Part shown: positions 3,042-61,373 of the stretch, one piece after another
Position numbering within the stretch: the first letter of the stretch is position 1
Layout of the letters: each line of letters opens with the position of its first letter
Virus record (IMG/VR): IMGVR_UViG_3300031772_000004
Coordinates: 42,710 to 106,709 of that record
Direction: 5' to 3' (one strand)
Source: a virus
Taxonomy: Duplodnaviria; Heunggongvirae; Uroviricota; Caudoviricetes
Length of the DNA stretch: 64,000 nucleotides
Program-made: the position numbers and the translations under genes
Notes under the pieces: generated by a model
Told to the model about the DNA's origin: nothing
The model's input: the letters and a program-made list of their open reading frames with translations, nothing else
The model's database searches: none

Positions 3042-3043
3042 AA

Positions 3044-3670: not shown

Positions 3671-3673
3671 AGT

Positions 3674-3895: not shown

Positions 3896-3929
3896 ATATT
3901 TAATAATATAACATTTATTTGGTTGTTGG

Positions 3930-4823: not shown

Positions 4824-4824
4824 G

Positions 4825-16825: not shown

Positions 16826-16827
16826 GA

Positions 16828-18395: not shown

Positions 18396-18397
18396 GA

Positions 18398-19003: not shown

Positions 19004-19059
19004 TTCTTTATTTTATATTTCCAGATATAACCAAATAACTTATAAATGGATTATTCATA

Positions 19060-19293
19060 TTACTCTTTAATCTTTACAAAATGATGCTCGACGGTTAATG
19101 GCGCAACACAACTAAACTTTTCTGTGTAGAGATATTCACCGTCGATGGTGACACCATCCCCATATAGACTACCCTCACCGGTATCAAGAGCATCTGCTAT
19201 ATGTTTTACAATTCTTTCTTGCTCTTGATTAGTTGGCTGTCTATCCAATTCTATTGTAACAATTATATCTAATTTCATGCTCATATTATACAC
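19060..19293 (-). CDS. hypothetical protein
   Basis: 77-aa ORF overlapping the next gene's start. Confidence 0.25.
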   Translation of the reverse strand: MYNMSMKLDIIVTIELDRQPTNQEQERIVKHIADALDTGEGSLYGDGVTIDGEYLYTEKFSCVAPLTVEHHFVKIKE

Positions 19294-20608: not shown

Positions 20609-20610
20609 AT

Positions 20611-20904
20611 TTATTTTCCAATTTTTTCATCCATAACTCTAACATAAGAGGACTCGACTTTTAAATTTATATCTGCTTTATGCTCTGTTATAGGTTCTTT
20701 ATCAACCATCATATAGAATATCATTCCAATCTTGTGTGGAGATTTAAATTCGTCAAGTTGGTTACTAATTCCCGCTTTAGAAAAAAGAGAACCTGTAGAA
20801 TTTGTTGTATCATTTCGAATACTTTCCACTTCTTTTGTTATATTGTAAAAATATTCCACTAATTCTTCTTTTGTGCCTTCAATTATTTTTTTCTCATTAA
20901 TCAT
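20611..20904 (-). CDS. hypothetical protein
   Basis: 97-aa ORF. Confidence 0.3.
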   Translation of the reverse strand: MINEKKIIEGTKEELVEYFYNITKEVESIRNDTTNSTGSLFSKAGISNQLDEFKSPHKIGMIFYMMVDKEPITEHKADINLKVESSYVRVMDEKIGK

Positions 20905-21878
20905 ATCTTTATTTCCTTTATTTGTTTTTCTATTTCTTCTGTGTTAATTTTTGGTATATCAAATCCCATACTATCAAATGGCATTTTATGACCCACATGT
21001 TCAGCGTTAGTATGTAAACTAAAGCGTGTGGTTGGTTCAAAATTCTCAAGAGTATAATCCATGCCCTTTATAAATTCTTCACACATATGCGGTGCATTAA
21101 TATTGCCCTCATTCAATGCCCAGCGTCTGCCTTCTAAACCACATTTTTCTCTCTGTTCCTTAGGCATCAGATACCAATACATAATTGCTTCCGCGACATC
21201 TTCCCACTTACACACATCATCAAAAATATATGGTGTTGGCGGCGAACCTTGAATATAACGGGTTGAAGGCCACACCGGTTTTGCCCAAACTCCACATTTC
21301 TTATATTTTCCTACATTATTAGTTCCAAAATTATAATCAAATTCAACGGGCTTACCATCATCATCTATTTGACCAATTTGGTCTTGTAAACCGCCAGTAA
21401 CATTAACAATGACGGGAACGCCAGCCATTATAGATTCTCCGCAGGACAACCCAAATCCTTCATTGGAAGAAATATTTGCGGTAACATCGGCTAAATTATA
21501 CAAAAGATTCATTGCTTCTGGTAAAAACTTATCTTCAGTTACGACAATAGTATAATCGGGTGATAATGCTGAATGAACAACTGGCAAATCTGTGCCTGCA
21601 TCCAATATTTTTTCTGTGTGTAATACTAATGCACACTTAGACGCTTGCTCTTTTGTAAGATTATCACAGAATGCACGAAATGCTAACATTAATTGGGCCG
21701 TTCGTTTTCTGTTAATGTTTCGGCTGTTATAAAATACAACAAAATCATAACTTTTATTCCCAAACATTTTCTTTTTCATTTCAATAAGTTTTGGGTCGGT
21801 TTTATGTATTGGTTTAAAAACCTTCGGATTAATTCCGTGGGGCAAATATTGTAATAAGTGTTTTCCTTTTATTGGCAT
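20901..21878 (-). CDS. GT-B fold glycosyltransferase (GT1/GT4-like)
   Basis: SNEGFGLSCGESIMAGVPVIVNVTGG, the GT4 nucleotide-sugar-binding motif. Confidence 0.5.
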   Translation of the reverse strand: MPIKGKHLLQYLPHGINPKVFKPIHKTDPKLIEMKKKMFGNKSYDFVVFYNSRNINRKRTAQLMLAFRAFCDNLTKEQASKCALVLHTEKILDAGTDLPVVHSALSPDYTIVVTEDKFLPEAMNLLYNLADVTANISSNEGFGLSCGESIMAGVPVIVNVTGGLQDQIGQIDDDGKPVEFDYNFGTNNVGKYKKCGVWAKPVWPSTRYIQGSPPTPYIFDDVCKWEDVAEAIMYWYLMPKEQREKCGLEGRRWALNEGNINAPHMCEEFIKGMDYTLENFEPTTRFSLHTNAEHVGHKMPFDSMGFDIPKINTEEIEKQIKEIKI

Positions 21879-21889
21879 ATATAATTCCT

Positions 21890-22393
21890 TTAATCTAACG
21901 GCGCTTGTTCATTTTCAAGCTCTTCTACAAAAAACTCATTGATTGAACTTCTTTCTTCTTTTGTCAATGGAGTTTGTTTTGGAAATTTATCCAAGACATC
22001 TTTGAAATCCTTAGAAATTTCAATAAATGTGGTCTTATCTGTCTCACAAAACATTTTTTCAATTTTTATGTATAATTTATCTGGAAACTCCTTCAAATAA
22101 TAATCGAATGCTGGACAAAACCAAGCAACTAAATTTGTTTTTTCACATACATAATATGCACCAATCTTTAATCCTTCAGGATTAACCTTTGTAAAGATAG
22201 TATCATAAGCAGGAATTTCTTCGGCTGAAAATAGAAAATTTACAATTGTTATTTTTTGGTCATTAATCATTTTATCAATTATGACAGGAAATCCAAAAGG
22301 CAATGCTTCTTCTTTGACACCCATGTACATGTCATCAAAAGACCAACCTTTATTGTGTCGGTATAACTGAATTTTATGTGTGTTGTTATTCAT
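21890..22393 (-). CDS. hypothetical protein
   Basis: 167-aa ORF. Confidence 0.3.
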   Translation of the reverse strand: MNNNTHKIQLYRHNKGWSFDDMYMGVKEEALPFGFPVIIDKMINDQKITIVNFLFSAEEIPAYDTIFTKVNPEGLKIGAYYVCEKTNLVAWFCPAFDYYLKEFPDKLYIKIEKMFCETDKTTFIEISKDFKDVLDKFPKQTPLTKEERSSINEFFVEELENEQAPLD

Positions 22394-25937: not shown

Positions 25938-28460
25938 ATGTATCAAAATGTATTTCATGACAAAAGAAATGAAGTTGTCCATATCTTTGATGATGTAGCT
26001 GGCCATGTTAAAATACCAACATCACAATTAAACTTTGCTTATAAAAGAAAAAGCGGTGGTAAGTATCGTTCAATCTATGGTGACGAACTTGAAAGAGTTA
26101 CCAATTTTAATCCCAGTGACCAAAGCTTATTTGAAGCAGATGTACCTATAACAACCCGAGCGTTAATTGAGGGTTATTATGATTGTGATGAAATTTCTAT
26201 TGGCCATACCGTTCTTATATTAGACATTGAAACAAATAGTGAAGGTGGTTTTCCTGATTTAGAAACCGCTGACCAAGCCATTACCGCCATTTCATTCTAT
26301 GATAAAACTACACAAAAATATTCTTGCTTTGTCATAGATGCAGAAAACAAAGTCAAAGATAGAACCGATATTGAATTGCGAACATTTTCCGACGAAGAAT
26401 CTCTATTAGAAGCATTTTTGAATGCATGGGAAAGCATAAGACCTTCAATAGTAACAGGTTGGAACTCTTCTGGCTTTGATATGGTTTATCTTTATACAAG
26501 AATTAAAAGAGTATTAGGTAATCAATGTGCAAGATTGTCACCAATAGGAATTGCGTATGTTAATCCCCATTATAAAGAATTGACTTGTGCTGGAGTTTGT
26601 ATAGCGTTAGATTATATTGATTTATACAAAAGATATAGTGGTGTTAGAAAAGCATCATATACACTTGGAAATGTTGGAAAAGAAGAAGTAAAGATAAACA
26701 AAGTCCAATATGAAGGAAATTTGAGTACTCTGTATAAACTAGACATTAATAAATTTATTGAATACAACTTAACCGATGTTGAAATTGTTGTTGAGTTAGA
26801 CAAGAAATTCAATTACATTGACCAAGCCCGTGAAATTTGTCATTTCTGTCATGTCCCTTATGAATACTATGCGGTCCCATCGCGATTCTTAGAAGGTGCG
26901 GTATTAACCTATCTCAAGAGGAATAAATTGGTTGCTTCAAATAAGCCAATTAACGGCAGAGAAGAATATGAGACTAGAATAAAAGAAAACGAAGAGGGTT
27001 TTACGGGTGCTTATGTAAAAGACCCTATTCCGGGAAAATACAATTGGGTTTATGATTTAGATATGCAATCTCTATATCCAAGTATTATTCAAAGCTTGAA
27101 TATTTCGCCGGAAACGCTTGTTGGTACAATTGAAAATTGGGATGGCAATGCGTATGTTAAAAATGAAATCAGAACGATAAAGTTAAACAAAGTAGAATTT
27201 TCCGTTGATGAATTTAAAAAGATGTTAGAAGAAAAAAATTGTTCGGTTGGTTCTAACGGGTCGGTTTATACGCTTAGTAAGCGGGGGATAATGCCTATTA
27301 TCATTGAAAAGTGGATTAAAGAACGAATTGAGACAAGAAAAGAAGCAAAGCGTGAATCAGATAGTGGTAATAAAGACAGATATGAAGTATTAAATCGAAA
27401 GCAAGTTACTCTTAAAATTTTAGCTAATTCAATATACGGCTGTTTGGGTTTGCCTATCTGGCGATGGTATAATAAGGATAATGCGGAAGCGACAACGATT
27501 ACTGGTCAAGTATTGATTCAATCCGCTGGTAAAATTGTCAATCAATATTATAGAAATATAACAAAAGATGATAAAGATTATGTCATCTATTGTGATACCG
27601 ACTCATTATTTGCTTCAGTATTACCCATTATAGATTTATTAAGACCCCATATTAATAAAGCTGACACAACGGAAATGATAAAAGCTACATCAGAAATTGC
27701 GGGGGATGTCCAAAATTATATTAATGGGATATTAAATGTACTCTCAAAGAAAATGTTTAATGTAACCGAGCATACATTCTTCATAAAGAAAGAAATGATT
27801 GCGGAGACGGCAATATGGCTTGCTAAAAAACGATATGTCCAATGGATTGTTAATAGGGGTGGAATTACCTGTGATGAAATGGCAGTCACGGGAATTGATA
27901 CAGTCCGGACAAGCTTTCCACCGAAATTTAGTTCATTTATGATTGGTGTTATGGAACAAATATTGAAAAATAAAACAGAACATGATATCAATGAAATGAT
28001 TTTGAATTTTGAAGAGAATTTGAATTCGCTTTCGATTTTCGATGGTGCAAAATCAACTTCGGTAAAATTTACATCCATGGACCAATTAAAAGAATATACA
28101 TCGAAAAATAGAAAACCATTTGAAATTATAAAAGGCTCTCCCGCTCAAGTTAAAGCTGCTCTATATTATAACGATTTGCTTAAACATTGGAAATTAGATA
28201 AGATGGTTGAACCGATTTATAATGGACAGAAAATAAGATACATTTATTTGAAAGACAATGAATTTGGAGTGGATAATATTGCACTTAAAGCGGATGGAAC
28301 AGACCCAAAGCAAATGTTGGATTTCTGTAACAAATATATTGACCGCCGCAAAATGTATGAAGCAGAATTAAAAAGTAAATTAAAGGATTTTTATAGTGTT
28401 CTTTCTTGGAGTTATCCAAGTTTAGAAACAAGAAAAGCAGAGGAGTTTTTTGAACTCTAA
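25938..28460 (+). CDS. 43: family B DNA polymerase, T4 gp43-like
   Basis: Exo I region LILDIETNSEGGFPD. DLDMQSLYPSIIQSLNISPETLVGT (T4: [25 protein letters not shown]). ILANSIYGCLG (motif B KxxxNSxYG). YCDTDS (motif C). 840 aa. Confidence 0.92.
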   Translation: MYQNVFHDKRNEVVHIFDDVAGHVKIPTSQLNFAYKRKSGGKYRSIYGDELERVTNFNPSDQSLFEADVPITTRALIEGYYDCDEISIGHTVLILDIETNSEGGFPDLETADQAITAISFYDKTTQKYSCFVIDAENKVKDRTDIELRTFSDEESLLEAFLNAWESIRPSIVTGWNSSGFDMVYLYTRIKRVLGNQCARLSPIGIAYVNPHYKELTCAGVCIALDYIDLYKRYSGVRKASYTLGNVGKEEVKINKVQYEGNLSTLYKLDINKFIEYNLTDVEIVVELDKKFNYIDQAREICHFCHVPYEYYAVPSRFLEGAVLTYLKRNKLVASNKPINGREEYETRIKENEEGFTGAYVKDPIPGKYNWVYDLDMQSLYPSIIQSLNISPETLVGTIENWDGNAYVKNEIRTIKLNKVEFSVDEFKKMLEEKNCSVGSNGSVYTLSKRGIMPIIIEKWIKERIETRKEAKRESDSGNKDRYEVLNRKQVTLKILANSIYGCLGLPIWRWYNKDNAEATTITGQVLIQSAGKIVNQYYRNITKDDKDYVIYCDTDSLFASVLPIIDLLRPHINKADTTEMIKATSEIAGDVQNYINGILNVLSKKMFNVTEHTFFIKKEMIAETAIWLAKKRYVQWIVNRGGITCDEMAVTGIDTVRTSFPPKFSSFMIGVMEQILKNKTEHDINEMILNFEENLNSLSIFDGAKSTSVKFTSMDQLKEYTSKNRKPFEIIKGSPAQVKAALYYNDLLKHWKLDKMVEPIYNGQKIRYIYLKDNEFGVDNIALKADGTDPKQMLDFCNKYIDRRKMYEAELKSKLKDFYSVLSWSYPSLETRKAEEFFEL

Positions 28461-44447: not shown

Positions 44448-46694
44448 ATGAAATATTCAGATTTTTACAATTTAAAAGAAGCGCCGATTGATGATAATTC
44501 CGATGACTTACGGAAGCCTACTGGTGCTCCTCTAGCCATTGGTGAGCATGAGTCTGGAGGTCCCATAAGTTTAGATGTAAACGATCCAATTCCATGTGAA
44601 TCTACCTATGATGAAAAAGTTCCTGGAAAAGTTCTTTGGCCTGACGATCCAACTCTTGATGAATCTGAATTTCCTGCTAGAAGTTTATATCCAAATGCTA
44701 AAGGCGACGAAAAAATTCGCGTTAATAATTTAAAACTAGCAAAAGAGTTAATTACTATTCTTGATCAATTTAAAGGTATTCGTGGCGCAAAGACAAAATT
44801 ATATCAGTTGAAATTAAATGGTATGCCAATAACATCCACTGTAATTAAATCTATATATTTTGGTCTTAGACAATTTTCCGATGCAGAAACCATTGCAGTA
44901 AAGAAACAACTATTATCTAATCTTAAAAAGATATATAATAAATCAATAAGTGATTGTTATTCTAAGGATGATCTTTTAGAAACTTTAACATTAAAGAAAT
45001 ATGAGAATGATTTGGTTGTAGTATCTGATTTAGAAGGCAGAAAAGAACAATCTGCAGAAACATTTAGACATAAGAATGAATTAAAGAAGGCGGGGTTTAG
45101 ATGGGATGGAAAACTAAATTCGTGGGTTGTATCGACAGAAAGATTTCAAGATGCACAAAAAACCATTGCCAAAATAAACAAAAAGCCTCTTGAAGTAATT
45201 ATAAGCACTCTTGATGATCTTCCAGAATTTGTATTAAATGCTGATAATATATCAAAAAAACAAGAATTGGCTGGACAAATTGAATCATTTGTGACCGATT
45301 TAAGTAATGAAGTAGATGAAGCTGCCGCCTCTGAGAAAGTTCGAGCATTTTTTGAGTTTAATCGAAGATTTAGAAATTATAGTATAGTTAATACCTTTTT
45401 AATTTATTTACAAAAGAATAATGCTACAAGAGTTGCTGGTTTTCATGCCTGGCGCGTAAAATTTCATAGAAATGTAAAGAAGGGTGCAAAAGCAATATCA
45501 ATTTTTGCTCCACAAACATATAAAGAGCGTGATGATAAAGTTGAAGATGGCGATCTTGACGCAGAAGTTAGACAACGCCGTGTCACGCGCTTTATAGCAG
45601 TAAATGTTTTTGATGTATCCGACACAGAACCGATTGATGCAAGCGGTGAGCTTCCCGTAGAACCACAATGGTATGGAGAAAACACTCCGAGTGACATTGC
45701 GGAAAAAATATACACTTATAGTGAAGAATTATCAAAGGTATTGGGTATTAATATAACAAGAGATGTATCGCATCGAGGAGAACGAGGATTTTCAGCTGGT
45801 GACCATATTAATATAACAAGTGGTGTTGAGGGGGTTGGTAAAGCTGCAACGATGGTTCATGAAATCGCACACGAATTGATGCATAAGAGTGAAACTTCAT
45901 TATTTTATGTGGGAACAGATACAACACGGGAACAAAAAGAATTACAAGCAGAATCTATATCTTATGTAGTATTAAGGCATTACAATTTACCTGTACAACA
46001 CCAATCTACTTATTTGGCATTATGGAAGGCTGATAAAAGTGCGGTGCAATCCAATCTCGAATTGATTAAAAAGGTATCCAATTTTATTATTGATGAAATT
46101 GACAAAATAGCTGAAAAGGATGAAAAGGCTGCTATTAATAAACCAATTGGCACTAAACCGATTGATGTTGATAAGCAGACTTTAACGGAAGGAGCAAGGG
46201 GAATGGCTCTTGCTGGATTAGTTGGTGCTAGTTCTATGATTTCTTATCCACAAACAATGTTTGCTAGTGGAAATGTTCCAACTTCCATGGCATCTAATGA
46301 AACGCGTGGTATACGAAATAACAATCCTGGAAATATAAAAACATCAAAAGATAAATGGCAAGGCCAGACTGGAAACGATGCGGTATTTGTTAAATTTGAT
46401 TCTCCTGAGAGTGGTATAAGAGCTATTGCAAAGATTTTAAAAACATATCAAGCAAAATATAATATTCATAGTATTGTTGATATAATTGCTCGATGGGCAC
46501 CACAAAAAGAAAATAGAACAGATAAATATACTAATTTTGTGGCTCATAAAGTAGGTTTAGATAAAAATGTAGGAATTGATATTCTTAAAGACAAAGATAT
46601 GCTAAAAAAGATTGTAAAAGCAATCATTGAATTTGAAAATGGTAAAAACCCTTATTCAGATTCTATTATTACCTCTGGAATCAATAAATCTTAA
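44448..46694 (+). CDS. ArdC-like antirestriction / polyvalent-type protein (ssDNA-binding ArdC-N plus zincin metallopeptidase plus C-terminal NNPGNI domain)
   Basis: AGFHAWRVKFHRNVKKGAKAISIFAP...RFIAVNVFDVSDTEPI resembles the ArdC N-terminal (DUF1738) domain. ATMVHEIAHELMH is HExxH zincin. The C-terminal region has RNNNPGNIK...WQG...WAP. Confidence 0.55.
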   Translation: MKYSDFYNLKEAPIDDNSDDLRKPTGAPLAIGEHESGGPISLDVNDPIPCESTYDEKVPGKVLWPDDPTLDESEFPARSLYPNAKGDEKIRVNNLKLAKELITILDQFKGIRGAKTKLYQLKLNGMPITSTVIKSIYFGLRQFSDAETIAVKKQLLSNLKKIYNKSISDCYSKDDLLETLTLKKYENDLVVVSDLEGRKEQSAETFRHKNELKKAGFRWDGKLNSWVVSTERFQDAQKTIAKINKKPLEVIISTLDDLPEFVLNADNISKKQELAGQIESFVTDLSNEVDEAAASEKVRAFFEFNRRFRNYSIVNTFLIYLQKNNATRVAGFHAWRVKFHRNVKKGAKAISIFAPQTYKERDDKVEDGDLDAEVRQRRVTRFIAVNVFDVSDTEPIDASGELPVEPQWYGENTPSDIAEKIYTYSEELSKVLGINITRDVSHRGERGFSAGDHINITSGVEGVGKAATMVHEIAHELMHKSETSLFYVGTDTTREQKELQAESISYVVLRHYNLPVQHQSTYLALWKADKSAVQSNLELIKKVSNFIIDEIDKIAEKDEKAAINKPIGTKPIDVDKQTLTEGARGMALAGLVGASSMISYPQTMFASGNVPTSMASNETRGIRNNNPGNIKTSKDKWQGQTGNDAVFVKFDSPESGIRAIAKILKTYQAKYNIHSIVDIIARWAPQKENRTDKYTNFVAHKVGLDKNVGIDILKDKDMLKKIVKAIIEFENGKNPYSDSIITSGINKS

Positions 46695-47085: not shown

Positions 47086-48690
47086 ATGATTAATTTAAAT
47101 GTTAAATGGAGCGAGCCATGCAAAATAAAAACAAAGTATGGTGAGCAATATCGAAGAGAATGGTTAATACCTGCGGGGTATCGTTCTATTTTTTTTGATT
47201 ATTGGCGTTTCAATTCTTTTAAATTAAAAGATAAGGGTTATGGGGTTTATAAGAAAGATAAAGATTGGTTTTTGACAGAAAGCAAAGTTGCACTGCATCA
47301 TTTTGAAGAATATAAAGATACGGCACCATCCTTAGAAGAATCTGATTTTATCTTGTTACCAAAAGATGTTAAAGATGTAACGGGATTAAGACCTTGGCAA
47401 ATTAATTCAGTTGGTAAAATATGTGCTGCATTAGAAAAGTGGGATTGTGCTATAGATGGTTCTGATTTAGGAATTGGCAAGACATATATTGCTTGTGCAG
47501 TTGCGCGTGAGCTAAATATGGATATTCTTGTGGTTTGTCCCAAAGCGGTAATGGAAACATGGCGCAGAGTAGTTTGTAATCATTTTAAAATGAAGAGTAA
47601 GTTGAAAGGAATTATTAACTATGAAATGCTTCGAATAGGCAAAGCAGAATCGGATATTGCCTCTTACATTAAAAACAAAAAGACCCATAAAGAAGAATTT
47701 ATTTGGAAAATACCCAAAGAGACATTAATTATTTGGGATGAAAGCCAAAAATTAAAAGGTAGTAATACTCAGAATAGTAAAACTTGTTTGCATGCTTTAA
47801 AACAAGAATATAAAATGTTATTTTGTAGTGCAACTAATGCCACAAATCCTTTGGAACTAAGAACGGTGGGAATGTGTTTACAATTGTTTAAAAATGGAAA
47901 GCAATACTATCAATGGTTATATTCTCATGGAGTTGATCGGGGTAGATTTGGATTACAATTTAACAATAGCAAAGATGTATTGAAAAAATTACATAAAGAT
48001 ATATTTATTGATAGGGGTGTTCGACTTACAAGAGATACCATTCCTAATTTTCCCGAAAGTGAAATTATTGCCGAATGTTATAATATGGAAGAAGAATCCA
48101 CCAAACAAATTAATGCTCACTATGATGAAATGTATAAAGAGCTTGCGAAGCTTAAAAGAAAAGAAAAATCCGATAAGGCAAGTGAATTAACTGCAATTTT
48201 GCGGGCACGACAGAAGATAGAATTGGTTAAAGTACCATTATTTATAGATATGATAGAAGAAGGTTTAGAAAATGGTATGAGTGTAGTAGTATTTGTTAAT
48301 TTTACAGAAACCATCAATGCACTTGCAAAAAGATTGAATACAAATTGTATAGTTAATGGTTTAGTGTCAGATGTTAAACGCATACAAAATGTTGATAATT
48401 TTCAAGATGACAAAGAACGCGTTATTCTTGTAAATATACAGGCCGGCGGTTCTGGACTTAGTTTACATGATATTAATGGAAAATATCCACGCCTTAGTTT
48501 GTTATCACCCAGCTATAGTGCAATATGTATGCGGCAAGCAACAGGTAGAGTTTGGCGTGACAGTGCAAAAAGTAAAAGTGTTCAAAAAATTGTATTTGTT
48601 GCTGATACTGTTGAGGAAAAAGTTTGTGAATCTGTAAATGCTAAATTAAAAAATTTAGATTTGTTAAATGACGGAGATTTATCTTTATGA
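47086..48690 (+). CDS. SNF2-like superfamily 2 helicase
   Basis: LRPWQ (Q-motif). DGSDLGIGKTYIA (motif I). IIWDESQKLKG (motif II). CSATNATN (motif III). GGSGLSLHD and RQATGRVWR (motifs V/VI). Confidence 0.65.
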   Translation: MINLNVKWSEPCKIKTKYGEQYRREWLIPAGYRSIFFDYWRFNSFKLKDKGYGVYKKDKDWFLTESKVALHHFEEYKDTAPSLEESDFILLPKDVKDVTGLRPWQINSVGKICAALEKWDCAIDGSDLGIGKTYIACAVARELNMDILVVCPKAVMETWRRVVCNHFKMKSKLKGIINYEMLRIGKAESDIASYIKNKKTHKEEFIWKIPKETLIIWDESQKLKGSNTQNSKTCLHALKQEYKMLFCSATNATNPLELRTVGMCLQLFKNGKQYYQWLYSHGVDRGRFGLQFNNSKDVLKKLHKDIFIDRGVRLTRDTIPNFPESEIIAECYNMEEESTKQINAHYDEMYKELAKLKRKEKSDKASELTAILRARQKIELVKVPLFIDMIEEGLENGMSVVVFVNFTETINALAKRLNTNCIVNGLVSDVKRIQNVDNFQDDKERVILVNIQAGGSGLSLHDINGKYPRLSLLSPSYSAICMRQATGRVWRDSAKSKSVQKIVFVADTVEEKVCESVNAKLKNLDLLNDGDLSL

Positions 48691-49769: not shown

Positions 49770-50279
49770 ATGAATAACAAAATAACACATTTATTAAATT
49801 CAATGGAAATCTTGGATACATTCAATATTTCAAAAAAGGTTTCCAATACGGACATAACCAAATTGAAAAATAAAATGATTGGTGATTGTTCTACACGATT
49901 TGAGTTGCAAGAATTATTAAAAGAAGAATTGATTAATGAAACAGATAAATATCTGCAAACGCATTACATTCCTGGTTTATTAACACCTAATAAAGGTCCA
50001 AATCGACCAAATAATCAGCCATCAAGGCCTACACAAAAGCCAAAGAAGCGGATTAATGTAAAAAGTGAAAAATTTGTAAGAGTTAAATTCAATGCTGAAA
50101 ACTTAGCAAAAACATTAAATGAAAATAAATTAGATAAAGAAGAAATGTTGTTTTTTGTTATATCTTTGGTGAATATGTTAGAATTAAGTGAGGATGATTT
50201 TGATGCGTTTCATAAAAAAATGGAGAGCGACGACGACTTTGAAGAAATGGACGACGACGACTCTCAACAAATTAAATAA
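49770..50279 (+). CDS. hypothetical protein with Pro-rich linker and acidic C-terminal tail
   Basis: PNKGPNRPNNQPSRPTQKPKKR then ESDDDFEEMDDDDSQQIK. Confidence 0.3.
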   Translation: MNNKITHLLNSMEILDTFNISKKVSNTDITKLKNKMIGDCSTRFELQELLKEELINETDKYLQTHYIPGLLTPNKGPNRPNNQPSRPTQKPKKRINVKSEKFVRVKFNAENLAKTLNENKLDKEEMLFFVISLVNMLELSEDDFDAFHKKMESDDDFEEMDDDDSQQIK

Positions 50280-50295
50280 AAACAAAAGAGGTTAT

Positions 50296-51459
50296 ATGAA
50301 AAATGTGTTACTTACACAGCAAATTATTTCTGTGTGCAAAAAACAAAATAAACCTGTTGTATTCATAACAGGCGTAACAGGTCAGGATGGTAGTTATATG
50401 GTAGATTACTTATTAAAGAATTATCCAGACAGATTCTTAATAGTTTGTGGAGTAAGGCGTAATAGTTCTTTAAATGATATAAACATAAAGCATGTTTCTG
50501 ATAAAGATTATTTTTTGACATATTTTGACCTAACTGATTCTGGTAATATAAATTCGCTAATAGAAAATATTAAACCTGCTTATTTTATAAATTTTGGCGG
50601 CCAAAGTTTTGTCGGAACCAGTTGGGATTTAGCAAAGCAAACATTTGAAACAAACGCAATTTCAATGATTTCCATATTGGATGCAATAAGAAAATATTCA
50701 CCGACTACAAAATTTTATCAGGCGGGAAGTTCAGAAGAATTTGGAAATGTAGAATATAGTCCACAAGATGAAAAACACCCATTAAAACCACGCAGTCCTT
50801 ATGGAGCAAGTAAAGCCGCAGCACGATTATTGCTAAAAACTTACAGAGAAAGTTACAATTTATATGCGGTTGCTGGTTGGTTGTTTAATCACGAATCGGA
50901 ACGGCGTGGACCTGAATTTGTTACTAGAAAAATAACAATAGGTGTAGCAAAAATTGATAAAGATATAAAAGCGGGCAATACCATCACCACCATTAAACTT
51001 GGAAATATAAACACCCAAAGAGACTGGTCACACGCTGAAGATATGGTAGATGGTGTCTGGAGAATGTTAAATCAAGAAGTATATAATAAAGAACTGGGTT
51101 GGATTGGAGAATTTGATGGAATTGAAACTTTAATTTATGATGCATCTAAACACATCAAAGATTATGTTCTTGGTAGTGGTGAAACACATACAATTAAAGA
51201 ATTTGTAAAATTAGCATTTCAAGCAGCAGGTTATCTTGGAAATTGGCATGAATTTACAGAGGGAGAAGAAGTATTTGTGTTAGCAAGTAATGATATGATT
51301 GTAGTGGAAGTTGATAAAAAATTATATCGTCCTGCCGAAGTAAATCATCTAATTGCTGATAACACTTTAGCAAAAGAAGAATTGAGATGGAAGCCACAAG
51401 TTTCATTTAAAGAATTAGTAAGTAGAATGGTTATTAACGATATAAACCTTATAAAATAA
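50296..51459 (+). CDS. gmd: GDP-mannose 4,6-dehydratase
   Basis: VVFITGVTGQDGSYMVDYLL (GMD signature GxTGQDGSYL). SDR catalytic YGASKAA. The start moved to ATG 50296, behind SD AAAAGAGG. Confidence 0.8.
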   Translation: MKNVLLTQQIISVCKKQNKPVVFITGVTGQDGSYMVDYLLKNYPDRFLIVCGVRRNSSLNDINIKHVSDKDYFLTYFDLTDSGNINSLIENIKPAYFINFGGQSFVGTSWDLAKQTFETNAISMISILDAIRKYSPTTKFYQAGSSEEFGNVEYSPQDEKHPLKPRSPYGASKAAARLLLKTYRESYNLYAVAGWLFNHESERRGPEFVTRKITIGVAKIDKDIKAGNTITTIKLGNINTQRDWSHAEDMVDGVWRMLNQEVYNKELGWIGEFDGIETLIYDASKHIKDYVLGSGETHTIKEFVKLAFQAAGYLGNWHEFTEGEEVFVLASNDMIVVEVDKKLYRPAEVNHLIADNTLAKEELRWKPQVSFKELVSRMVINDINLIK

Positions 51460-52647: not shown

Positions 52648-54597
52648 ATGTCATTAAAAATAAGCGAGTTTACCGACCAAGATATTTCAGGAAGTTCCGA
52701 CTATATTCCATTTGTGCGTTACGATAGTGGTTCTTCTTGCTTTCAAAGTTCAAACTACAGAACATTAGTATCAAAAATTACTGCTTCTTATGCTTTAACT
52801 AGTTCGTTTTCGATAAGCGGAGGCGATATAGATGTAATAATAGATGGACAAGGCATCTGCTCAACTCTGCGTACTGGTAGCGGAAATTCTTCTATAGGCG
52901 ATTATTCAGCAGTACTCGCCGGACAAGGAAATACCAGTGATGGAATGAATTCATCAGTATTAGGCGGCCGAGACAATCATGCTGATGGTTGTTATTCTAC
53001 ATTAGGTGGTGGATGGAATAATAGTGTTGTTGGTTGTTTTTCAACAGTAAGCGGTGGTTATCAAAACACAGGTAGTTCCGATTTTTCAACAATAAGTGGT
53101 GGTTATTGTAATCGCATTTGTGCTGGTGCAAATCTATCAACATTGGGCGGCGGCTATAATAATGTTATTAATGGTCAATATTCAACGATAGCTGGTGGGC
53201 GCCAAAATGTTATTTCAAATCAGGATGGAACAATTGGCGGCGGTAAAAGTAATACTGTCAGCAATTTTTATGGAACGATAGGTGGTGGAACGGGTAATAC
53301 AGTTTCCAATCGTTATTCTGTAATTGCTGGAGGTTGTAATAATAATACCGATGGGCAATTAAACTTTATTGGTGGAGGATTTAATAATCTCATACTAACT
53401 TCTAGTCTTTCCGTTATCGGCACAGGATGTAATAATGTTATAGATGCGGATACTGGTTGTTATAATGGAATTTTGGGTGGTTTTAATAATTGTATTCTTA
53501 ATAGTTGCAATACATTCATTATTGGAAGTGGTATAACCGCAAATGCTATCAGTGATTTTACTCTCTTCAATAATATATGTGTTTGTGGTATAGCATGTGG
53601 CTCAGGTTTTAATGCGGTAACTGTAAATTGTGGTAGTAACAGTATTATGATGCCCGGTTCAGGCACCAATTCTACTTTAAGAGATTGTAGTGGTAATGAA
53701 GTTACAGGCGATTATAGTTCAACTTTAAGTGGTCGGTATAATAAAGCATGTTCTAATTGTGCTACGATTGCCGGCGGCCAATATAATTGCACATGTGGTA
53801 CAAGTCTTGACGCAGTAATTGGTGGTGGTTGGAACAATGTTATATCTAATGGTTCGGGAAGTGGAATATTTGGTGGTAATAACAATTTAATATCAGGAAA
53901 TACTGACACATTCATTATTGGTAGTAATTTAACTTCTAATGCTAATTGCACTACTTATATGAATAATTTAGTTGTTGCCGGTAATATAAGTGCATCAGGA
54001 GCATTCACAGCATCAGGTGTATTCGGAACGGCATCTTATGCATCCAACGCAATAACCGCATCATATGCAACAACCTCATCATATTCAGTACATTCAGCAA
54101 CCGCAAGCTATTTTGATATATCAACATATAATACTCTTTATACAAAAGTATTAAATTCAACACAAGATAGTCCTTCTGGGGTATTTTGTTATCCAACAGA
54201 TTTAAGACACACTTTGCCTTCTGCAGGAACATATATTATAGATGGTATAATTTATTATTATCAATATACTGCTGGAGGAGATGGTACATTTACATTTTAT
54301 CCTAGCGCAAATATTACAAGTGGTAATTTTTATCTTGGCGGTTATAAAACCGACGATGGAAATTCTGCTTACCATGCAGGAGCCGGTGTCACTACACAAG
54401 TAAAAGATTCATTGTTTTTTGATACTGCAGGTGTTCAAATAAAATTTGCAGTAAATACCACCGATGTAAGTTCTGTATTACGTGCAACAGTAAGAGTATC
54501 TGCACCGACAACGATGTGCTTTGGCTTTAGAGGCGATGCATCTAATTGTTTAACTTTGTGCTGTAATAGTTATATAGGATTCCAAAAAATCGCTTAA
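52648..54597 (+). CDS. tail fibre / fibre-like protein with beta-helical 15-residue repeats
   Basis: At least 12 tandem repeats of about 15 aa, pattern S-T-[IL]-x-G-G-x-x-N-x-[VI] (for example STLGGGYNNVINGQY, STIAGGRQNVISNQDG, TIGGGKSNTVSNFYG). Ser/Thr/Ala/Tyr-rich C-terminus. Confidence 0.5.
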   Translation: MSLKISEFTDQDISGSSDYIPFVRYDSGSSCFQSSNYRTLVSKITASYALTSSFSISGGDIDVIIDGQGICSTLRTGSGNSSIGDYSAVLAGQGNTSDGMNSSVLGGRDNHADGCYSTLGGGWNNSVVGCFSTVSGGYQNTGSSDFSTISGGYCNRICAGANLSTLGGGYNNVINGQYSTIAGGRQNVISNQDGTIGGGKSNTVSNFYGTIGGGTGNTVSNRYSVIAGGCNNNTDGQLNFIGGGFNNLILTSSLSVIGTGCNNVIDADTGCYNGILGGFNNCILNSCNTFIIGSGITANAISDFTLFNNICVCGIACGSGFNAVTVNCGSNSIMMPGSGTNSTLRDCSGNEVTGDYSSTLSGRYNKACSNCATIAGGQYNCTCGTSLDAVIGGGWNNVISNGSGSGIFGGNNNLISGNTDTFIIGSNLTSNANCTTYMNNLVVAGNISASGAFTASGVFGTASYASNAITASYATTSSYSVHSATASYFDISTYNTLYTKVLNSTQDSPSGVFCYPTDLRHTLPSAGTYIIDGIIYYYQYTAGGDGTFTFYPSANITSGNFYLGGYKTDDGNSAYHAGAGVTTQVKDSLFFDTAGVQIKFAVNTTDVSSVLRATVRVSAPTTMCFGFRGDASNCLTLCCNSYIGFQKIA

Positions 54598-56399: not shown

Positions 56400-56726
56400 T
56401 TAATAAATACCACCATGCTTTTTAACATCCCATGTTCTAAGATTTAAAGAATCAACCATAAATTCTAAAAATTCTCGTGAATTCATATCTATAGCATTTT
56501 TGTATTCGTTCATGTCACCACCGCCCATATTATACGGATGGCCGCAACGTGATGGAAACAAATGATCTTTAGCTATTTTTCGCCATTCATCTTCGCTATA
56601 TATTGGATTTCTCCTAAATAAAGTCCAATGCTCTTTATCTTCACCACTATGTTGCGTAAATTCTACAAAGTAATATGGGAAATCATAATTGTCATTAATG
56701 TAAGGCGGATAAGATTCTATTTTCAT
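56400..56726 (-). CDS. hypothetical protein
   Basis: 108-aa ORF. Confidence 0.3.
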   Translation of the reverse strand: MKIESYPPYINDNYDFPYYFVEFTQHSGEDKEHWTLFRRNPIYSEDEWRKIAKDHLFPSRCGHPYNMGGGDMNEYKNAIDMNSREFLEFMVDSLNLRTWDVKKHGGIY

Positions 56727-56989
56727 TTTTGTTCTCCGAAAATTTTGTCCAAAAGTTTAGTTTCTTTGCTAGTTATTTTACCAAATTCTTCTATTAATTT
56801 TTTCTTTAAAAATTCCTCAGATGGCGCCGTGCCATTTTTTTCTGCTTCTTTAGCCAATTCATATAAACCATCACATTTTTCACAACCACCGGCATTACAA
56901 GTTGTGCCATGGCATTCACAATCATAATGATATGAACGGCACTCACACAAGTCACACCAAAACCAATTTTCTTCTTTTAACTCTTTCAT
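56723..56989 (-). CDS. hypothetical Cys-rich protein
   Basis: CDLCECRSYHYDCECHGTTCNAGGCEKCDG. Confidence 0.3.
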   Translation of the reverse strand: MKELKEENWFWCDLCECRSYHYDCECHGTTCNAGGCEKCDGLYELAKEAEKNGTAPSEEFLKKKLIEEFGKITSKETKLLDKIFGEQK

Positions 56990-57519
56990 ATTAATATTAT
57001 CTGGTCAAAACCTTCTTGCTGACTTGGTCGAACATACTTTTGTAACATTCTATCTATAACATCCTCGGGGACTACCCTACCACCCGCAGCCCCGCGAATC
57101 TTTTGACGGCTCATCAATAAATCTTTACTGCGTTCCATAACATATGCAATTAATGTAGCATTATGTTTCTTTGCAATCTCCACCCAGCTTTTTCTGTCTT
57201 TTGCATTTAAATTGGTAGCATCAATAATTACATTTTTACCCTTAGCCATTTCTGTGTCGGAATTACGCTTCATTATGGAAAACACTTGCGGTGTTACGCT
57301 TTGGTCATCTTCATTTCTTCCAATAATACCACGAAGCTTATCACTACTAAATAATACCGCATCAGGATGAGTAGATTTAAATTGTTCGATGTAGGTGCTT
57401 TTACCCGCTCCTGATATTCCTACGAATACATACATTATTGGTTTATTATTCATATTACATTTTTGGTCCACTTGGAAATATAATGGAAATTCCATCATCT
57501 TCATTATCTTCCCAATCAC
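56986..57519 (-). CDS. P-loop kinase resembling the T4 polynucleotide kinase (Pnk) kinase domain / AAA_33 family
   Basis: MYVFVGISGAGKSTY (Walker A, T4 Pnk GCPGSGKST). VIIDATNLNAKDRKSW (T4 Pnk VIISDTNLNPERR). 177 aa with no phosphatase domain. GTG start with GGAG SD, or an internal ATG at 57453. Confidence 0.55.
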   Translation of the reverse strand: MIGKIMKMMEFPLYFQVDQKCNMNNKPIMYVFVGISGAGKSTYIEQFKSTHPDAVLFSSDKLRGIIGRNEDDQSVTPQVFSIMKRNSDTEMAKGKNVIIDATNLNAKDRKSWVEIAKKHNATLIAYVMERSKDLLMSRQKIRGAAGGRVVPEDVIDRMLQKYVRPSQQEGFDQIILI

Positions 57520-57612
57520 TTACATCTCCATCCATAAATAATCGGATATTATTAGTTTTAACATCACTTTCTTCAATATCATTTTCTTCGATTGGTTTTG
57601 TATTATTCATAA

Positions 57613-58527
57613 TTACCTCATTATTATCTTTGCATCTGTCAATACACCATCTTTAATGTTAATTAGATATTGGCCACTCCAATCCGCTGTCAATTTTTCA
57701 TTGGAGTGGTAGATTAATTCATATATTTTATCCCATTTTCGACTGGGTTCAATAAATGAGGCTTTCCAATTAATATACATTCCTTCAATGATTTGGTATC
57801 GTGATACACAAACAGGACAGCGTGATTCTCCTGTTACCTTGTAATCATTTTGCATTGCTTTTTCTAAAGCGGATGGGTTTAAATTAGATTTTGTTGTTTG
57901 CACCTTGCGGAAACAGACACCACTAGCATTAACATTTTTTGCATATTCCAAGAAAGTAAAAATGTCATCTTTATTTTTTAGTAAATTGTCTGTAAGAACG
58001 CAATTAAGCATTACTGGTTTGCCTCTCTTATTGCATTCTACAATTATTTCTTGAAGAGCGAAGGTATTTGGAATATCTTTATTTTTAAATACACCTTGAT
58101 TGATTTCATCGTCATAGTGATGTCGGCTGATATTGACGGCTGTAACAACATTAAAATTCTTTAAATTGAAAAAGTTATTGGATAGGCCATTTGTGGTTAA
58201 TATTACTTTTTTTATCTTCGGGGCATCTTTTAGTATCCCAAGAATTTTATTAAGGTGAGGCGATAGTGTTGGCTCACCACCCGTAATACTTACTTGATTG
58301 AAATTGTCTGGTAAATTATAAAGAATATCTTTGAGGCCTTTAAAATATGTCTTTTCATTAATTTTGGTTAATTTGTTTTTGAAACAAAATGAACATGCAC
58401 ACAAGCAAGGTTGTGGAAGAATTATTGAAAAATTAGGATTCTCAATTGTCTCCAATCCTTGTTTTGGAAATTCTTCATCAAGAACGGATTCAACAATCTG
58501 TTGAACTTCTCTGCGTGTAACATTCAT
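57613..58527 (-). CDS. radical SAM enzyme (MoaA/viperin-like core; function unresolved)
   Basis: CLCACSFCF, that is CxxxCxxC followed by FCF. VSITGGEPTL (SAM-binding GGE). LTTNGLSN. 304 aa. Confidence 0.6.
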   Translation of the reverse strand: MNVTRREVQQIVESVLDEEFPKQGLETIENPNFSIILPQPCLCACSFCFKNKLTKINEKTYFKGLKDILYNLPDNFNQVSITGGEPTLSPHLNKILGILKDAPKIKKVILTTNGLSNNFFNLKNFNVVTAVNISRHHYDDEINQGVFKNKDIPNTFALQEIIVECNKRGKPVMLNCVLTDNLLKNKDDIFTFLEYAKNVNASGVCFRKVQTTKSNLNPSALEKAMQNDYKVTGESRCPVCVSRYQIIEGMYINWKASFIEPSRKWDKIYELIYHSNEKLTADWSGQYLINIKDGVLTDAKIIMR

Positions 58528-58539: not shown

Positions 58540-58821
58540 TTAGCAACCCCAGCCAAAATAATAACAGCTATTTGATGGTTCTGTGCTGCCAAGACGCTTT
58601 CCGGTAACTACGCTGTAATATCCGCCCCGCTTATCCTTTTTGACTTTCGCTTTTTTACTTTTTACTGCTTTAACAACATCCTTGGCGGTTGTTTTATCTA
58701 CTTTCTTACCCTTGTTATAAACATTGAAAGTATAAGATTTAGCGCCGGACTTCGTTGATGTTTCCGACATAACTTCCTTGACAACGCCTTTAATAAATTT
58801 TCTTAATTCTTTATCATCCAT
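58540..58821 (-). CDS. Lys-rich small basic protein
   Basis: KSKKAKVKKDKRGG, DNA-binding-like. Confidence 0.3.
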   Translation of the reverse strand: MDDKELRKFIKGVVKEVMSETSTKSGAKSYTFNVYNKGKKVDKTTAKDVVKAVKSKKAKVKKDKRGGYYSVVTGKRLGSTEPSNSCYYFGWGC

Positions 58822-58838: not shown

Positions 58839-59255
58839 TTAATAAATATCTGTCTTTTCACCAAATGTTATGTAGTTTTCAATATATTTTGTGATATTCT
58901 CAGATCCAATTGGATTCATTGTATGCACATAATATACTGGAAAAGGTAGATTTTTATCCATACAATATTTGACTAACCATTTTGCGCATTCATAGCCGGT
59001 CTTTTCTTTGAAAGTGCCGTCGGTGTAGTATTTGTTGTAATGTCTATCACGATTATACATTGACGGTCGATAATGTTCTTGAGCCAAGTCATGATCAAAT
59101 GATATAATTTCTGGTATACCATTTTTCATAATGGTATCCACAAATTCTATGTAATTTTTTACAATTGTCCAATTGACATCAGGCAATTTTATCCATGTCA
59201 CATCTTTTGGTTCACGCACGTCATCAAGAAATAAGTTATATTTCATTCTGCCCAC
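58839..59255 (-). CDS. hypothetical protein
   Basis: 138-aa ORF. Confidence 0.3.
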   Translation of the reverse strand: MGRMKYNLFLDDVREPKDVTWIKLPDVNWTIVKNYIEFVDTIMKNGIPEIISFDHDLAQEHYRPSMYNRDRHYNKYYTDGTFKEKTGYECAKWLVKYCMDKNLPFPVYYVHTMNPIGSENITKYIENYITFGEKTDIY

Positions 59256-59654: not shown

Positions 59655-59682
59655 AGTATTGATAATTATATCAATTTTTTGC
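59655..59682 (-). promoter_or_regulatory. sigma70-like promoter TTGACA-16-TATAAT (minus strand)
   Basis: The reverse complement reads TTGACAttctgcaaaaaattgaTATAAT, with SD AAAGGAAT before the ATG at 59635. Confidence 0.45.
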
Positions 59683-59688
59683 AGAATG

Positions 59689-59931
59689 TCAATCTTCATA
59701 TTTCACCCAGCAGTTATTATAATTGTGCCAATGACGAAAATCGTATATACTGAAAGTAAACCATATTCCTATTAATTCAAAGGTAAAGTGAAAGCCGGCG
59801 TGGTCAACATGTTTATCCCAACGAATTGAAAATTCAAACCAACACCAAAATTTTTTATTAAAACCACACTCCGTTTCAAGACCTTTGTGCTTGCTCAGTT
59901 TTATAAAAACCCCGTGTTTCCAAAATTTCAT
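59689..59931 (-). CDS. hypothetical Trp/His/Phe-rich protein
   Basis: 80-aa ORF. Confidence 0.25.
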   Translation of the reverse strand: MKFWKHGVFIKLSKHKGLETECGFNKKFWCWFEFSIRWDKHVDHAGFHFTFELIGIWFTFSIYDFRHWHNYNNCWVKYED

Positions 59932-60239: not shown

Positions 60240-61373
60240 TTATCTATCTCCCTTAAAGCAATTGTCAGGGTTAACTCGACAAGATTGTGGTGTATCTTTT
60301 CCCGTAAATCCAAGATATGTTGCTGTTACTTCCTTGCCAATCCAATCCTTTTTATTCTTTAATATTTCTGCTCGCTGTTCGTAATTGCCCGTAAATACGC
60401 CGTCGAATATCTTGCCATTTTTCATTTTCAAGGTGACGGCATATGCTGCTCCCGCCCAATTTCCGGTGCCATCGGTAATGTCAAGGATTTCAAACTCGTC
60501 ATCATCTTCGGGCTTTACCTTCAACAGATTTGCACTGCGCTTGTGTTCGTATTCGCCGTCAATTTCACGATACATCGCACCTTCATAGCCATCGTCAACA
60601 AATTCTTGATACTTTTTGTATAGCTCATCAAGACTCTTAACGATTACATAATCAACAACTACGATATACTTATAATCTTTCAAAAGTTTCTTCAAGGCTT
60701 CACGGCGCTCTTTACAGCCTGTTTCTTTTGTAATGTCATCGAAACCATAACCATCATAAACATACAGCCGAATAATCTTTTCACTCTCTGCAAGCAATTC
60801 CGGTGTAATTTCCTTATCCTTCTGCTTACGCATAATACTCATTAACTGATTGAGCTTGTAGCGCCATTCGTGATTATAACCTTCACCATCAATAAAGAGT
60901 TTTGGATATTTTTTGAAAAGTGGTTCAAGAGACTTTGCAATGTGTGGAATGGTTCTCCACAATTCACCCTGGCGGGTGTAAGTTATTGCTTTCTTGACAT
61001 TTACGCGGCCACCATTATACTTGCGGTCAAGCATTGCTGGAAAATGTAATTTCTTTAGTCTTTCCTTTAGCTTTTTAGCAAGCATCGGCTCGAGAAAGCC
61101 CGTATCATCAACGCCACCAAGAGTTTCTGAATATCCCGTTTTAAGCTGCTTTTCATACTTACTTTCGATTTCGGATGTTGCTTGCTCCGTTGGTGTCGTT
61201 TCATTTGCACGACCAACATTCTTGCCTTCAGCAATTGTCCAGTCGCTCGTAACAATCTTACCATCTTGAACACCAGCATTTGTTCGATATTTACCATCAG
61301 ATTGTTCAAGCCACCAGATGCGAATTTTGTTTTTAGAATCACGACTATATAACTTTTTATATGCTTTATTCAT
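60240..61373 (-). CDS. ATP-dependent DNA ligase (T7-like, compact)
   Basis: Motif I DRKYNGGRV (K-x-[DN]-G-x-R). III LFIDGEGY. IV DGYEGAMYRE. V LLKVKP. 377 aa. Confidence 0.75.
   Translation of the reverse strand: MNKAYKKLYSRDSKNKIRIWWLEQSDGKYRTNAGVQDGKIVTSDWTIAEGKNVGRANETTPTEQATSEIESKYEKQLKTGYSETLGGVDDTGFLEPMLAKKLKERLKKLHFPAMLDRKYNGGRVNVKKAITYTRQGELWRTIPHIAKSLEPLFKKYPKLFIDGEGYNHEWRYKLNQLMSIMRKQKDKEITPELLAESEKIIRLYVYDGYGFDDITKETGCKERREALKKLLKDYKYIVVVDYVIVKSLDELYKKYQEFVDDGYEGAMYREIDGEYEHKRSANLLKVKPEDDDEFEILDITDGTGNWAGAAYAVTLKMKNGKIFDGVFTGNYEQRAEILKNKKDWIGKEVTATYLGFTGKDTPQSCRVNPDNCFKGDR

Follow-up and report, generated by a model that had tools for sequence, protein, structure and literature searches.

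Which partner does a phage radical S-adenosylmethionine (SAM) enzyme work with, when a nucleotide kinase is encoded almost next to it? The question is raised by a 64,000-nt stretch of Caudoviricetes DNA (the window; positions 42,710 to 106,709 of the IMG/VR virus record IMGVR_UViG_3300031772_000004), in which a preliminary description, made from the sequence alone, had noticed a radical SAM gene beside a kinase gene and had likened the two to the arrangement used by prokaryotic viperins. Our analysis leads away from the kinase. The enzyme belongs to a nearly all-viral family, and the constant partner of this family is a peptide carrying a pair of cysteines, either fused to the enzyme or encoded adjacent to it. 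We propose a self-contained phage module of two parts, the radical SAM gene providing catalysis and the Cys-pair peptide being the other half, with the radical chemistry done on or through the peptide, an interpretation for which we would judge the chances to be about even.

A word-index search returned 148 relatives of the window enzyme and an exhaustive search 200 clusters (50% identity) at E<1e-30, nearly all of them on viral contigs; the names they carry are generic superfamily labels of the Joint Genome Institute (JGI), with nothing specific on function. The core of these proteins ends in the pattern ...YELI.H.DG.LT.DW.G, from where many members run on into a variable, low-complexity extension with endings such as GCGRSGGC, NCGVGGSC or HGCGGGGHC. 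Among the 241 proteins of a census, a Cys pair closes the sequence in 139, and 29 have their pairs internally with further modules C-terminal to them, which brings the Gly/Ser-rich Cys-pair extension to 168 of 241 (~70%); 44 are tail-less, among them the window protein (C-terminus ...DAKIIMR), and 29 are of other kinds or fragments. Two cysteines per tail is the commonest number (67 tails), followed by four (35), six (8), eight (3) and ten (2), with an odd number in 48, and some tails consist of repeated Cys-pair units (e.g. proteins P0152, P0166 and P0177). The gap between consecutive tail cysteines peaks at 4-8 residues; Gly or Ser precedes the Cys in 72% and Gly follows it in 60%, and 79 tails terminate with their last Cys while 34 have it as the penultimate residue. 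The linker between core and pair measures anything from about 20 to >300 residues, with no charge bias found, and a conserved ‘leader’ helix motif was seen in only 6 of 138 tails. In the AlphaFold2 (AF2) model of a fused member, the tail is disordered, the predicted local distance difference test (pLDDT) score being 73, 61, 55 and 44 over the last blocks.

In the window, the pair is found in a separate open reading frame (ORF), a 93-aa peptide gene that ends 12 nt upstream of the radical SAM start and that the preliminary description had not looked at. Its product ends in ...SNSCYYFGWGC, with C86 and C93 as its only cysteines; at the N-terminus (DDKELRKFIKGVV) it is similar to the helices at the start of the peptides of two related loci, L089 (DPALKRKIVQELL) and L090 (DPQIKRQIVKELL). 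These loci also encode the closest homologues of the window enzyme, P0002 (52% identical) and P0003 (48%), and both have their Cys-pair ORF upstream, at the position that it has in the window; the other separate ORFs of Table 1 lie downstream. All of these split ORFs start at a distance of about 25 nt or less from the enzyme gene, and the chance level of such Cys-pair ORF ends is low, about 40 in 917 kb on both strands, excluding the radical SAM tails and partner ORFs. A small cognate peptide gene beside the enzyme, as in the SPASM/twitch systems for peptides that are made on the ribosome and modified after translation (RiPPs), is present here in the form of the 93-aa ORF. An NCBIfam scan of the partner peptides gave no match. 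The window protein itself was found on a 204,840-bp contig, the next relative being only 52% identical, and other samples carry identical DNA for the 93-aa gene, which is therefore uninformative on selection. One related locus, L032, is disrupted. At two loci with an identical radical SAM protein (P0065), the downstream peptide ORF differs by a frameshift, leaving the pair only in L092 (2629..2844) and not in L091 (3973..4194), either through an assembly error or through natural disruption.

The enzyme is the 304-aa radical SAM protein that the preliminary description had seen: its ORF contains PCLCACSFCF (C41-x3-C45-x2-C48) and ITGGEPT and matches Pfam Radical_SAM with 35.5 bits (gathering score 29.5), and in the alignment A1 the residues C41, C45 and C48 as well as T82, G83, G84, E85 and P86 are invariant. 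The same description had stated that the protein has neither a SPASM domain nor a second iron-sulfur cluster site. The first part stands, the Pfam scan of the window protein giving no match to SPASM (PF13186); in the second part, a near-invariant pair, C237-P-V-C240, had been passed over, of which C237 is invariant in A1 and C240 is kept in at least 90%. This core CxxC was found in 208 of 211 family members, and the three members without it are also without tail cysteines; the alignment A2, which comprises 41 members with tails, shows no variation in the CPVC of the core or in the pair of the tail. The structure model places the CPVC at the turn of a predicted beta-hairpin (strands 231-237 and 240-247). 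In a hand alignment to E. coli MoaA (FCATCNRLRVSSIGKLHLC; F-C-A-T-C-NRLRVSSI-G-KLHL-C), the CxxC and the Gly at +9 are in common, and with the family motif C-P-V-C-x8-G-x4-W, W254 sits at the position of the third cluster Cys of MoaA. These alignments suggest that the CPVC is probably the remnant of a MoaA-type auxiliary-cluster site, two of whose three Cys have been kept.

The overall fold points in the same direction as far as class is concerned. The window enzyme has the partial triosephosphate isomerase (TIM) barrel and C-terminal sheet of MoaA, and in a structure comparison of the model the fold is nearest to MoaA, and its neighbours in that comparison include the twitch/SPASM peptide maturases SuiB, SkfB, ChlB and EpeE. 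In front of the SAM-binding motif, the family has Q-V-S-I-TGGEP in place of the K-I-R-I-TGGEP of MoaA, whose Lys and Arg we take to contact the triphosphate of GTP, and the only (nearly) invariant basic residues in A1 are R135 and R207, against several acidic ones (E222, E260, E270 and D282). The lack of the MoaA Lys and Arg together with the paucity of invariant basic residues argues against a nucleoside-triphosphate substrate.

The viperin/MoaA-like core of the preliminary description is thus apt as a structural class and not as membership of either family. The MoaA model TIGR02666 gives 49.3 bits against a cut-off of 284 (residues 41-200) and the viperin model NF038283 29.1 bits against 180 (residues 39-177); the PADLOC models of prokaryotic viperins (pVips) match weakly (36.7 and 32.2 bits, residues 37-198), and a profile comparison with viperin covers the generic core only, below cut-off. 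The N_Twi_rSAM model reaches 20.9 bits against 170. All matches to curated models are confined to the generic N-terminal radical SAM core, the PHROGs label (‘radical SAM domain-containing protein’) is nothing finer, and we conclude that the window enzyme belongs to none of the curated families. That it is not an activase of the NrdG or QueE type, as had been surmised, is borne out by scores far under the cut-offs (NrdG2 27.5 bits against 131, NrdG 20.8 against 126, QueE 20.6 against 260, with QueE cut-offs spanning 206-260), on which we have ruled out either identity. No NrdD or other glycyl-radical domain was seen in the ten ORFs scanned (among them all those of at least 423 aa except a 649-aa repeat protein) in the 64-kb window, which itself is a portion of a contig no shorter than 205 kb.

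The kinase, in turn, has in our judgement no place in this module. It is of the Pnk/AAA_33 type, as described before, with 80.3 bits for AAA_33 (cut-off 27) and, for the kinase part of the bacterial Pnkp model (positions 10-152 of 851), 86 bits, and its ORF, listed as 56986..57519 (-), probably starts at M23 (ATG at 57453), a start also given by an independent gene caller. The two genes do not adjoin directly, a 51-aa ORF lying in between. A tblastn search with the kinase gave 274 phage records, and among the matches listed, with 26-34% identity, most are annotated as polynucleotide kinase or PseT; it shares the kinase domain with T4 PseT and bacterial Pnkp and lacks their phosphatase domain. 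The PADLOC pVip-kinase model does not match it. When the window neighbours (kinase, cRec, ligase, HNH gene and others) were compared by phmmer with all ORFs of 34 related loci with 5-kb flanks, the radical SAM gene alone was recovered and none of the neighbours had a homologue; an all-against-all clustering of the ORFs of the same loci brought out no other recurrent neighbour, the remaining clusters being antisense shadows. Neither a functional link between enzyme and kinase nor the prokaryotic-viperin arrangement is supported by these results. As a further pair, we considered that of phage M6, gp53 (radical SAM) and gp54 (kinase); M6 and ViI are phages with 5-hydroxymethyldeoxyuridine (5-hmdU) DNA kinases of thymidine hypermodification. 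Neither window protein matches M6 or ViI genes by tblastn, and we dropped this candidate.

How might the two halves of the proposed module act together? The CxxxCxxC cluster would cleave SAM to yield a 5'-deoxyadenosyl radical, and the CPVC hairpin would form a MoaA-type auxiliary Fe-S site, which, with two Cys ligands left, would have open iron sites. The two thiolates of the peptide might bind at this site and thereby bring the peptide to the radical, perhaps with its Cys or with the Gly that comes after each of them, the outcome being a thioether-type cross-link (e.g. to the Cα of a neighbouring Gly) or some other Cys- or Gly-centred modification of the peptide. A precedent is offered by the sactipeptide and ranthipeptide synthases, in which a substrate Cys ligates an auxiliary cluster (CteB). 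Core and tail appear to be coupled, both being absent in the CxxC-less members and in distant cellular relatives, and the even Cys counts, repeated units, internal pairs and independent helical peptides favour a role of the peptide as substrate. One may go a step further and imagine a MoaA-derived enzyme that completes its cluster with the Cys pair of its own tail or partner and then radical-modifies that peptide, giving a cross-linked or cofactor-like appendage for counter-defence or for redox or nicotinamide adenine dinucleotide (NAD) metabolism; this would be the first fused-substrate (‘autocatalytic’) radical SAM peptide system, and a virus-specific one. We put forward this fuller version tentatively, as possible rather than probable.

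Several points weigh against a peptide modified at a MoaA-type site. The match of CPVC to MoaA was made by hand only, the profile alignment (hhalign) to E. coli MoaA ending at residue 197. The tail is not docked on the core in the AF2 model, which, with metals not modelled, is weak evidence either way. No SPASM or twitch hidden Markov model (HMM) match and, in profile scans of the window enzyme, no RiPP recognition element were detected, there is no protease or exporter near the radical SAM gene, and a substrate that stays fused to its enzyme would be unusual for radical SAM maturases. As for the window peptide, its pair, C-YYFGWG-C, is aromatic and not Gly/Ser-rich, and it has no phmmer-detectable homology to the L089 and L090 peptides. 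Lastly, no Cys pair was found at two of the related loci (L003 and L016), and a third, L008, has a single terminal Cys.

The Cys-pair tail might alternatively be a part of the enzyme. As a movable arm, comparable to the Gly-Gly tail of MoaA, it would complete the auxiliary cluster or gate the start of the radical reaction, and the real substrate would be some nucleic acid or small molecule, perhaps a nucleotide. Much of the above would suit such an arm: the nearest structure is that of MoaA; with two of the three MoaA auxiliary Cys kept in the core, two ligands are ‘missing’, and a pair is just what the tail brings, both pairs being invariant in A2; and this tail is disordered, usually at the extreme C-terminus, and stays fused in about 70% of the members; nucleotide, NAD or RNA-repair genes are often nearby. 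The flexible C-terminal Gly-Gly tail of MoaA can reportedly act in trans. An arm of this kind is nevertheless hard to reconcile with such widely varying linkers, with the many tails of 4-10 Cys in repeats (P0152, P0166), needless for a ligand, and with the 29 members that hold their pairs internally with other modules behind, and, if the substrate is to be a triphosphate, with the missing Lys and Arg before GGEP and basic invariants limited to R135 and R207. We consider the mobile arm rather unlikely, and the idea that the pair serves as a redox shuttle, re-reducing a disulfide formed at the core CPVC in a reductive radical reaction, improbable. Flexible tails of that sort are known from class Ia ribonucleotide reductase (C-terminal CX4C) and from the large thioredoxin reductases, and a flexible tail with its pair at the extreme C-terminus, coupled to the core CxxC, is what a shuttle would look like. 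A CPxC at a hairpin turn is, on the other hand, a classic metal knuckle, here aligned with the cluster ligands of MoaA, and a shuttle would lead one to expect neither repeated and internal pairs nor split peptides with helical domains of their own.

Two further explanations would take the enzyme back to better-known chemistries. It might be an activase that sets a stable glycyl (or thiyl) radical on a ‘C-G’ motif of the peptide, comparable to the pyruvate formate-lyase activating enzyme (PFL-AE) or NrdG and to the RVCGY of NrdD. The scores far under the cut-offs of those families, the lack of an RVxG[FYW] context or a folded glycyl-radical domain in these disordered peptides, the G-W-G-C rather than C-G at the end of the window peptide, and the lack of a glycyl-radical enzyme among the scanned ORFs make this very improbable in our judgement. 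Hardly credible, finally, is a viperin-like maker of 3'-deoxy-3',4'-didehydro (ddh) nucleotides, or a nucleotide or nucleic-acid modifier, acting with the kinase, or its variant, a pair of the M6 gp53/gp54 type: NF038283 covers the generic core only, at 29 bits against 180, homologues of the kinase are absent at the 34 related loci, the window kinase is PseT/Pnk-like, M6 and ViI gave no tblastn match, and the association with the Cys-pair peptide would be left unexplained. On the HMM cut-offs, the non-conservation of the kinase and its type, viperin plus kinase was ruled out as a candidate. We therefore retain, at the strength given at the outset, the two-part module of enzyme and Cys-pair peptide.

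Table 1. Coordinates of the features discussed, in the window and at related loci (L numbers)
Feature	Sequence	Coordinates	Strand	Length	Position relative to enzyme gene	Basis or C-terminal ending
Radical SAM enzyme, tail-less member of the phage family	window	57613..58527	-	304 aa		ORF
Codons of C41-L-C-A-C45-S-F-C48, CxxxCxxC for the SAM-cleaving [4Fe-4S] cluster	window	58384..58407	-			sequence
Codons of G83-G-E-P86, GGEP SAM-binding motif	window	58270..58281	-			alignment A1
Codons of C237-P-V-C240, cysteine knuckle at beta-hairpin turn	window	57808..57819	-			A1, model, hand alignment
Partner peptide gene: N-terminal helix, Lys-rich middle, C-terminal Cys pair	window	58540..58821	-	93 aa	upstream	ORF with AAGGA ribosome-binding site, independent gene callers
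Codons of C86-x6-C93, terminal Cys pair of the 93-aa peptide	window	58543..58566	-			sequence
Cys-pair ORF	L001	6835..6981		48 aa	downstream	ends ...GRCGGSGCYRGGGRCGM
Cys-pair ORF	L004	5819..6016		65 aa	downstream	ends ...GCGSGGCGHGSPARSCGSGGC
Cys-pair ORF	L027	5744..5833		29 aa	downstream	
Cys-pair ORF	L056	5741..5821		26 aa	downstream	
Cys-pair ORF	L092	2629..2844		71 aa	downstream	
Cys-pair ORF (enzyme P0002)	L089	2063..2296		77 aa	22 nt upstream	ends ...GCGYRASGCGSGGC
Cys-pair ORF (enzyme P0003)	L090	1898..2131		77 aa	about 22 nt upstream	ends ...ACGSSENGCGYSGCR
Pnk-type P-loop kinase from M23, without phosphatase domain, judged not part of the radical SAM module	window	56986..57453	-	155 aa		AAA_33, Pnkp, tblastn
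Acidic ORF (...GDVSDWEDNEDDG...) between radical SAM stop and kinase start	window	57455..57610	-	51 aa		GAGGT ribosome-binding site
cRec domain protein, judged not part of the radical SAM module	window	58839..59255	-			PF20274, 78 bits
Sigma-70-type promoter TTGACA-16-TATAAT with extended -10 TG	window	59665..59692	-			12/12 match
Polysacc_synt_2 dehydratase	window	12220..13242	-			
Class-III aminotransferase	window	10950..12230	-			
ATP-grasp protein	window	2040..3041	-			
Glycosyltransferase-like protein	window	19286..20608	-			
GDP-mannose 4,6-dehydratase	window	50188..51459	+			

If the kinase does not belong with the radical SAM enzyme, it may well be grouped with other genes of the window. 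The cRec gene lies two genes upstream of the radical SAM gene, and a protein of the ATP-dependent DNA-ligase family is encoded at 60240..61373 (-); cRec, the kinase-only Pnk and the ligase are found within 4.4 kb on one strand. For the cRec domain (cyclic-phosphate-processing receiver), a role in processing cyclic phosphates has been predicted, along with a link, in jumbo phages, to polynucleotide kinases and to RNA ligases (Iyer et al., 2021, PMC7824862). The simplest reading is that kinase, cRec and ligase make up a separate end-healing and sealing set for RNA or DNA repair, among whose genes the radical SAM module happens to lie, and in which cRec may replace the missing phosphatase domain of Pnk by providing the phosphoesterase step. 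The promoter of Table 1 probably marks the start of a co-directional array that includes the cRec, peptide, radical SAM and kinase genes, and no terminator-like site was found on the minus strand before 55879; in an array so tightly packed and co-directional, adjacency alone says little on function. The 51-aa ORF of this array is also predicted by independent gene-calling programs on further contigs from this phage (L095-L097) and has no homologue in the 34 related loci; some fused members of the family end in an acidic-Trp motif (...DPYEEENWD) like that of this ORF. An 88-aa ORF at 56723..56989 (-), which overlaps the kinase stop by 4 nt, has a dense Cys cluster (CDLCECRSYHYDCECHGTTCNAGGCEKCDG) and no family match.

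With regard to its distribution, the family reaches well beyond the window. There are 49 IMG/VR relatives and 43 records of GenBank phages, mostly Erwinia, Dickeya and Yersinia jumbo phages, with farther GenBank matches on uncultured metagenomic phages of 635-735 kb; no close DNA relative of the window was found among deposited phages. GenBank annotates the relatives as ‘hypothetical protein’ or, by reflex, as ‘GTP 3',8-cyclase’, a label that is probably wrong for the copy of Erwinia phage Y3. An example of the other label is QYW04950.1 (L093 2992..4131) of the cultured jumbo phage pEa_SNUABM_7 of Erwinia, to which Y3 is related: this ‘hypothetical protein’ has CPSC in its core and, fused to it, a tail with four Cys (...GCQYRTVGCSYGESESAGGCSFRTTGSCSF). 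In a set with one genome per species, close relatives were seen on only five contigs of metagenome-assembled genomes (MAGs), each with a typical fused tail or, at L056, an adjacent Cys-pair ORF. Members of a sister group (27-30% identity) carry ‘CKC’ where the family has CPVC, and at L038 and L040/41 a 103-aa ORF with a Cys pair at its end lies upstream. More distant cellular relatives (22-27% identity; MAGs of gut Bacilli and Clostridia) are without both CxxC and tail. Bacilli examples of this distant group (8 of 19 loci) lie in an operon of NadD, three radical SAM paralogues, a P-loop protein, a MiaB-like radical SAM protein, PncC and NadK; at L061 (2753..8887, on a 638-kb contig of a gut Bacilli MAG), the radical SAM paralogues have 239, 322 and 347 aa, the last being the distant relative of the window enzyme, and the P-loop protein has 188 aa, and similar operons are present at L058, L060, L064, L067 and L069. 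The family is undescribed in Pfam, NCBIfam, PHROGs and PADLOC beyond superfamily-level matches, and full-text literature yielded no phage radical SAM family with Cys/Gly tails, with incomplete coverage that makes an earlier description possible.

Compared to known systems, the family differs from each in several respects. Unlike MoaA, with its three auxiliary Cys (Cx2Cx13C), it keeps C237 and C240 and has Trp for the third; the window enzyme does not have the terminal Gly-Gly; partners of molybdenum cofactor (Moco) synthesis were not noticed near family genes, MoaC not having been searched for specifically; and the family occurs almost only in phages, together with its Cys-pair peptide partner. 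Viperin and the pVips have a nucleotide-binding C-terminal part to which the window enzyme shows no resemblance; neither auxiliary cysteines nor a peptide tail are found in viperin, and the kinase link of the pVips is not conserved in the phage family, the window kinase being of another type. The twitch/SPASM maturases (SkfB, SuiB, CteB/PapB, EpeE) differ in that the phage family has only two auxiliary Cys, a peptide that is usually fused and is of low-complexity Gly/Ser/Cys composition, and a phage setting. A target peptide that is the enzyme's own C-terminal extension, with split variants existing as well, is known from the borosin N-methyltransferases (OphMA), whose enzyme class and chemistry are wholly different; in the phage family, a modification of the tail would follow from the proposed scheme. 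Among systems of radical SAM enzymes with cognate peptides, the family is unusual in its fused peptide, its lack of SPASM domain and recognition element, its half-kept MoaA-type site and its near-exclusive viral range.

Further observations concern the genomic setting. Family members lie in early or accessory phage gene arrays, with DnaB downstream of the radical SAM gene in four lineages and RtcB beside family members in L091, L092 and L008; RNA-repair neighbours of this kind are also the cRec, Pnk and ligase genes of the window. NAD-salvage genes occur within a few kb in three unrelated loci, PnuC and a NadR-like AAA_28 protein at L001 (2004..4215), NadM-Nudix and NadV at L089 (3266..5552), and NadK and NadD at L053 (2287..3809). 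Such NAD-salvage and RNA-repair surroundings are typical counter-defence neighbourhoods, and their frequency suggests that the module might have a counter-defence role; the association is loose, and may perhaps reflect mere clustering of accessory genes. Elsewhere in the window, a large cluster for sugar-nucleotide and glycan biosynthesis occupies 1..22000 (-) and 50188..51459 (+) (Table 1). A 748-aa protein with an ArdC N-terminal domain (anti-restriction, single-stranded DNA-binding; 44448..46694, +) adjoins a SNF2-like helicase (47086..48690, +), and a family B DNA polymerase is encoded at 25938..28460. The 649-aa protein rich in Gly, Ser, Asn and Cys with short repeats (...GG.NN...; 52648..54597, +) is probably a fibre or surface protein.

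For the biology of these phages, the gene neighbourhood now reads differently, the kinase being grouped with the cRec and ligase repair genes and not with the radical SAM enzyme. Phage radical SAM genes are usually labelled MoaA, QueE, NrdG or viperin-like by reflex, and this family, present on hundreds of viral contigs, those of cultured Erwinia, Dickeya and Yersinia jumbo phages included, fits none of these labels. The Cys-pair peptide and the half-kept MoaA-type site together pose a biochemically testable question, namely what a radical SAM enzyme does with a Gly/Cys tail tethered to it. Should the peptide be the substrate, we would be looking at a new RiPP-like or protein-derived-cofactor architecture and, among the accessory functions of phages, at a new class; if it is instead a mobile ligand, the family would represent a new way of gating radical SAM chemistry.

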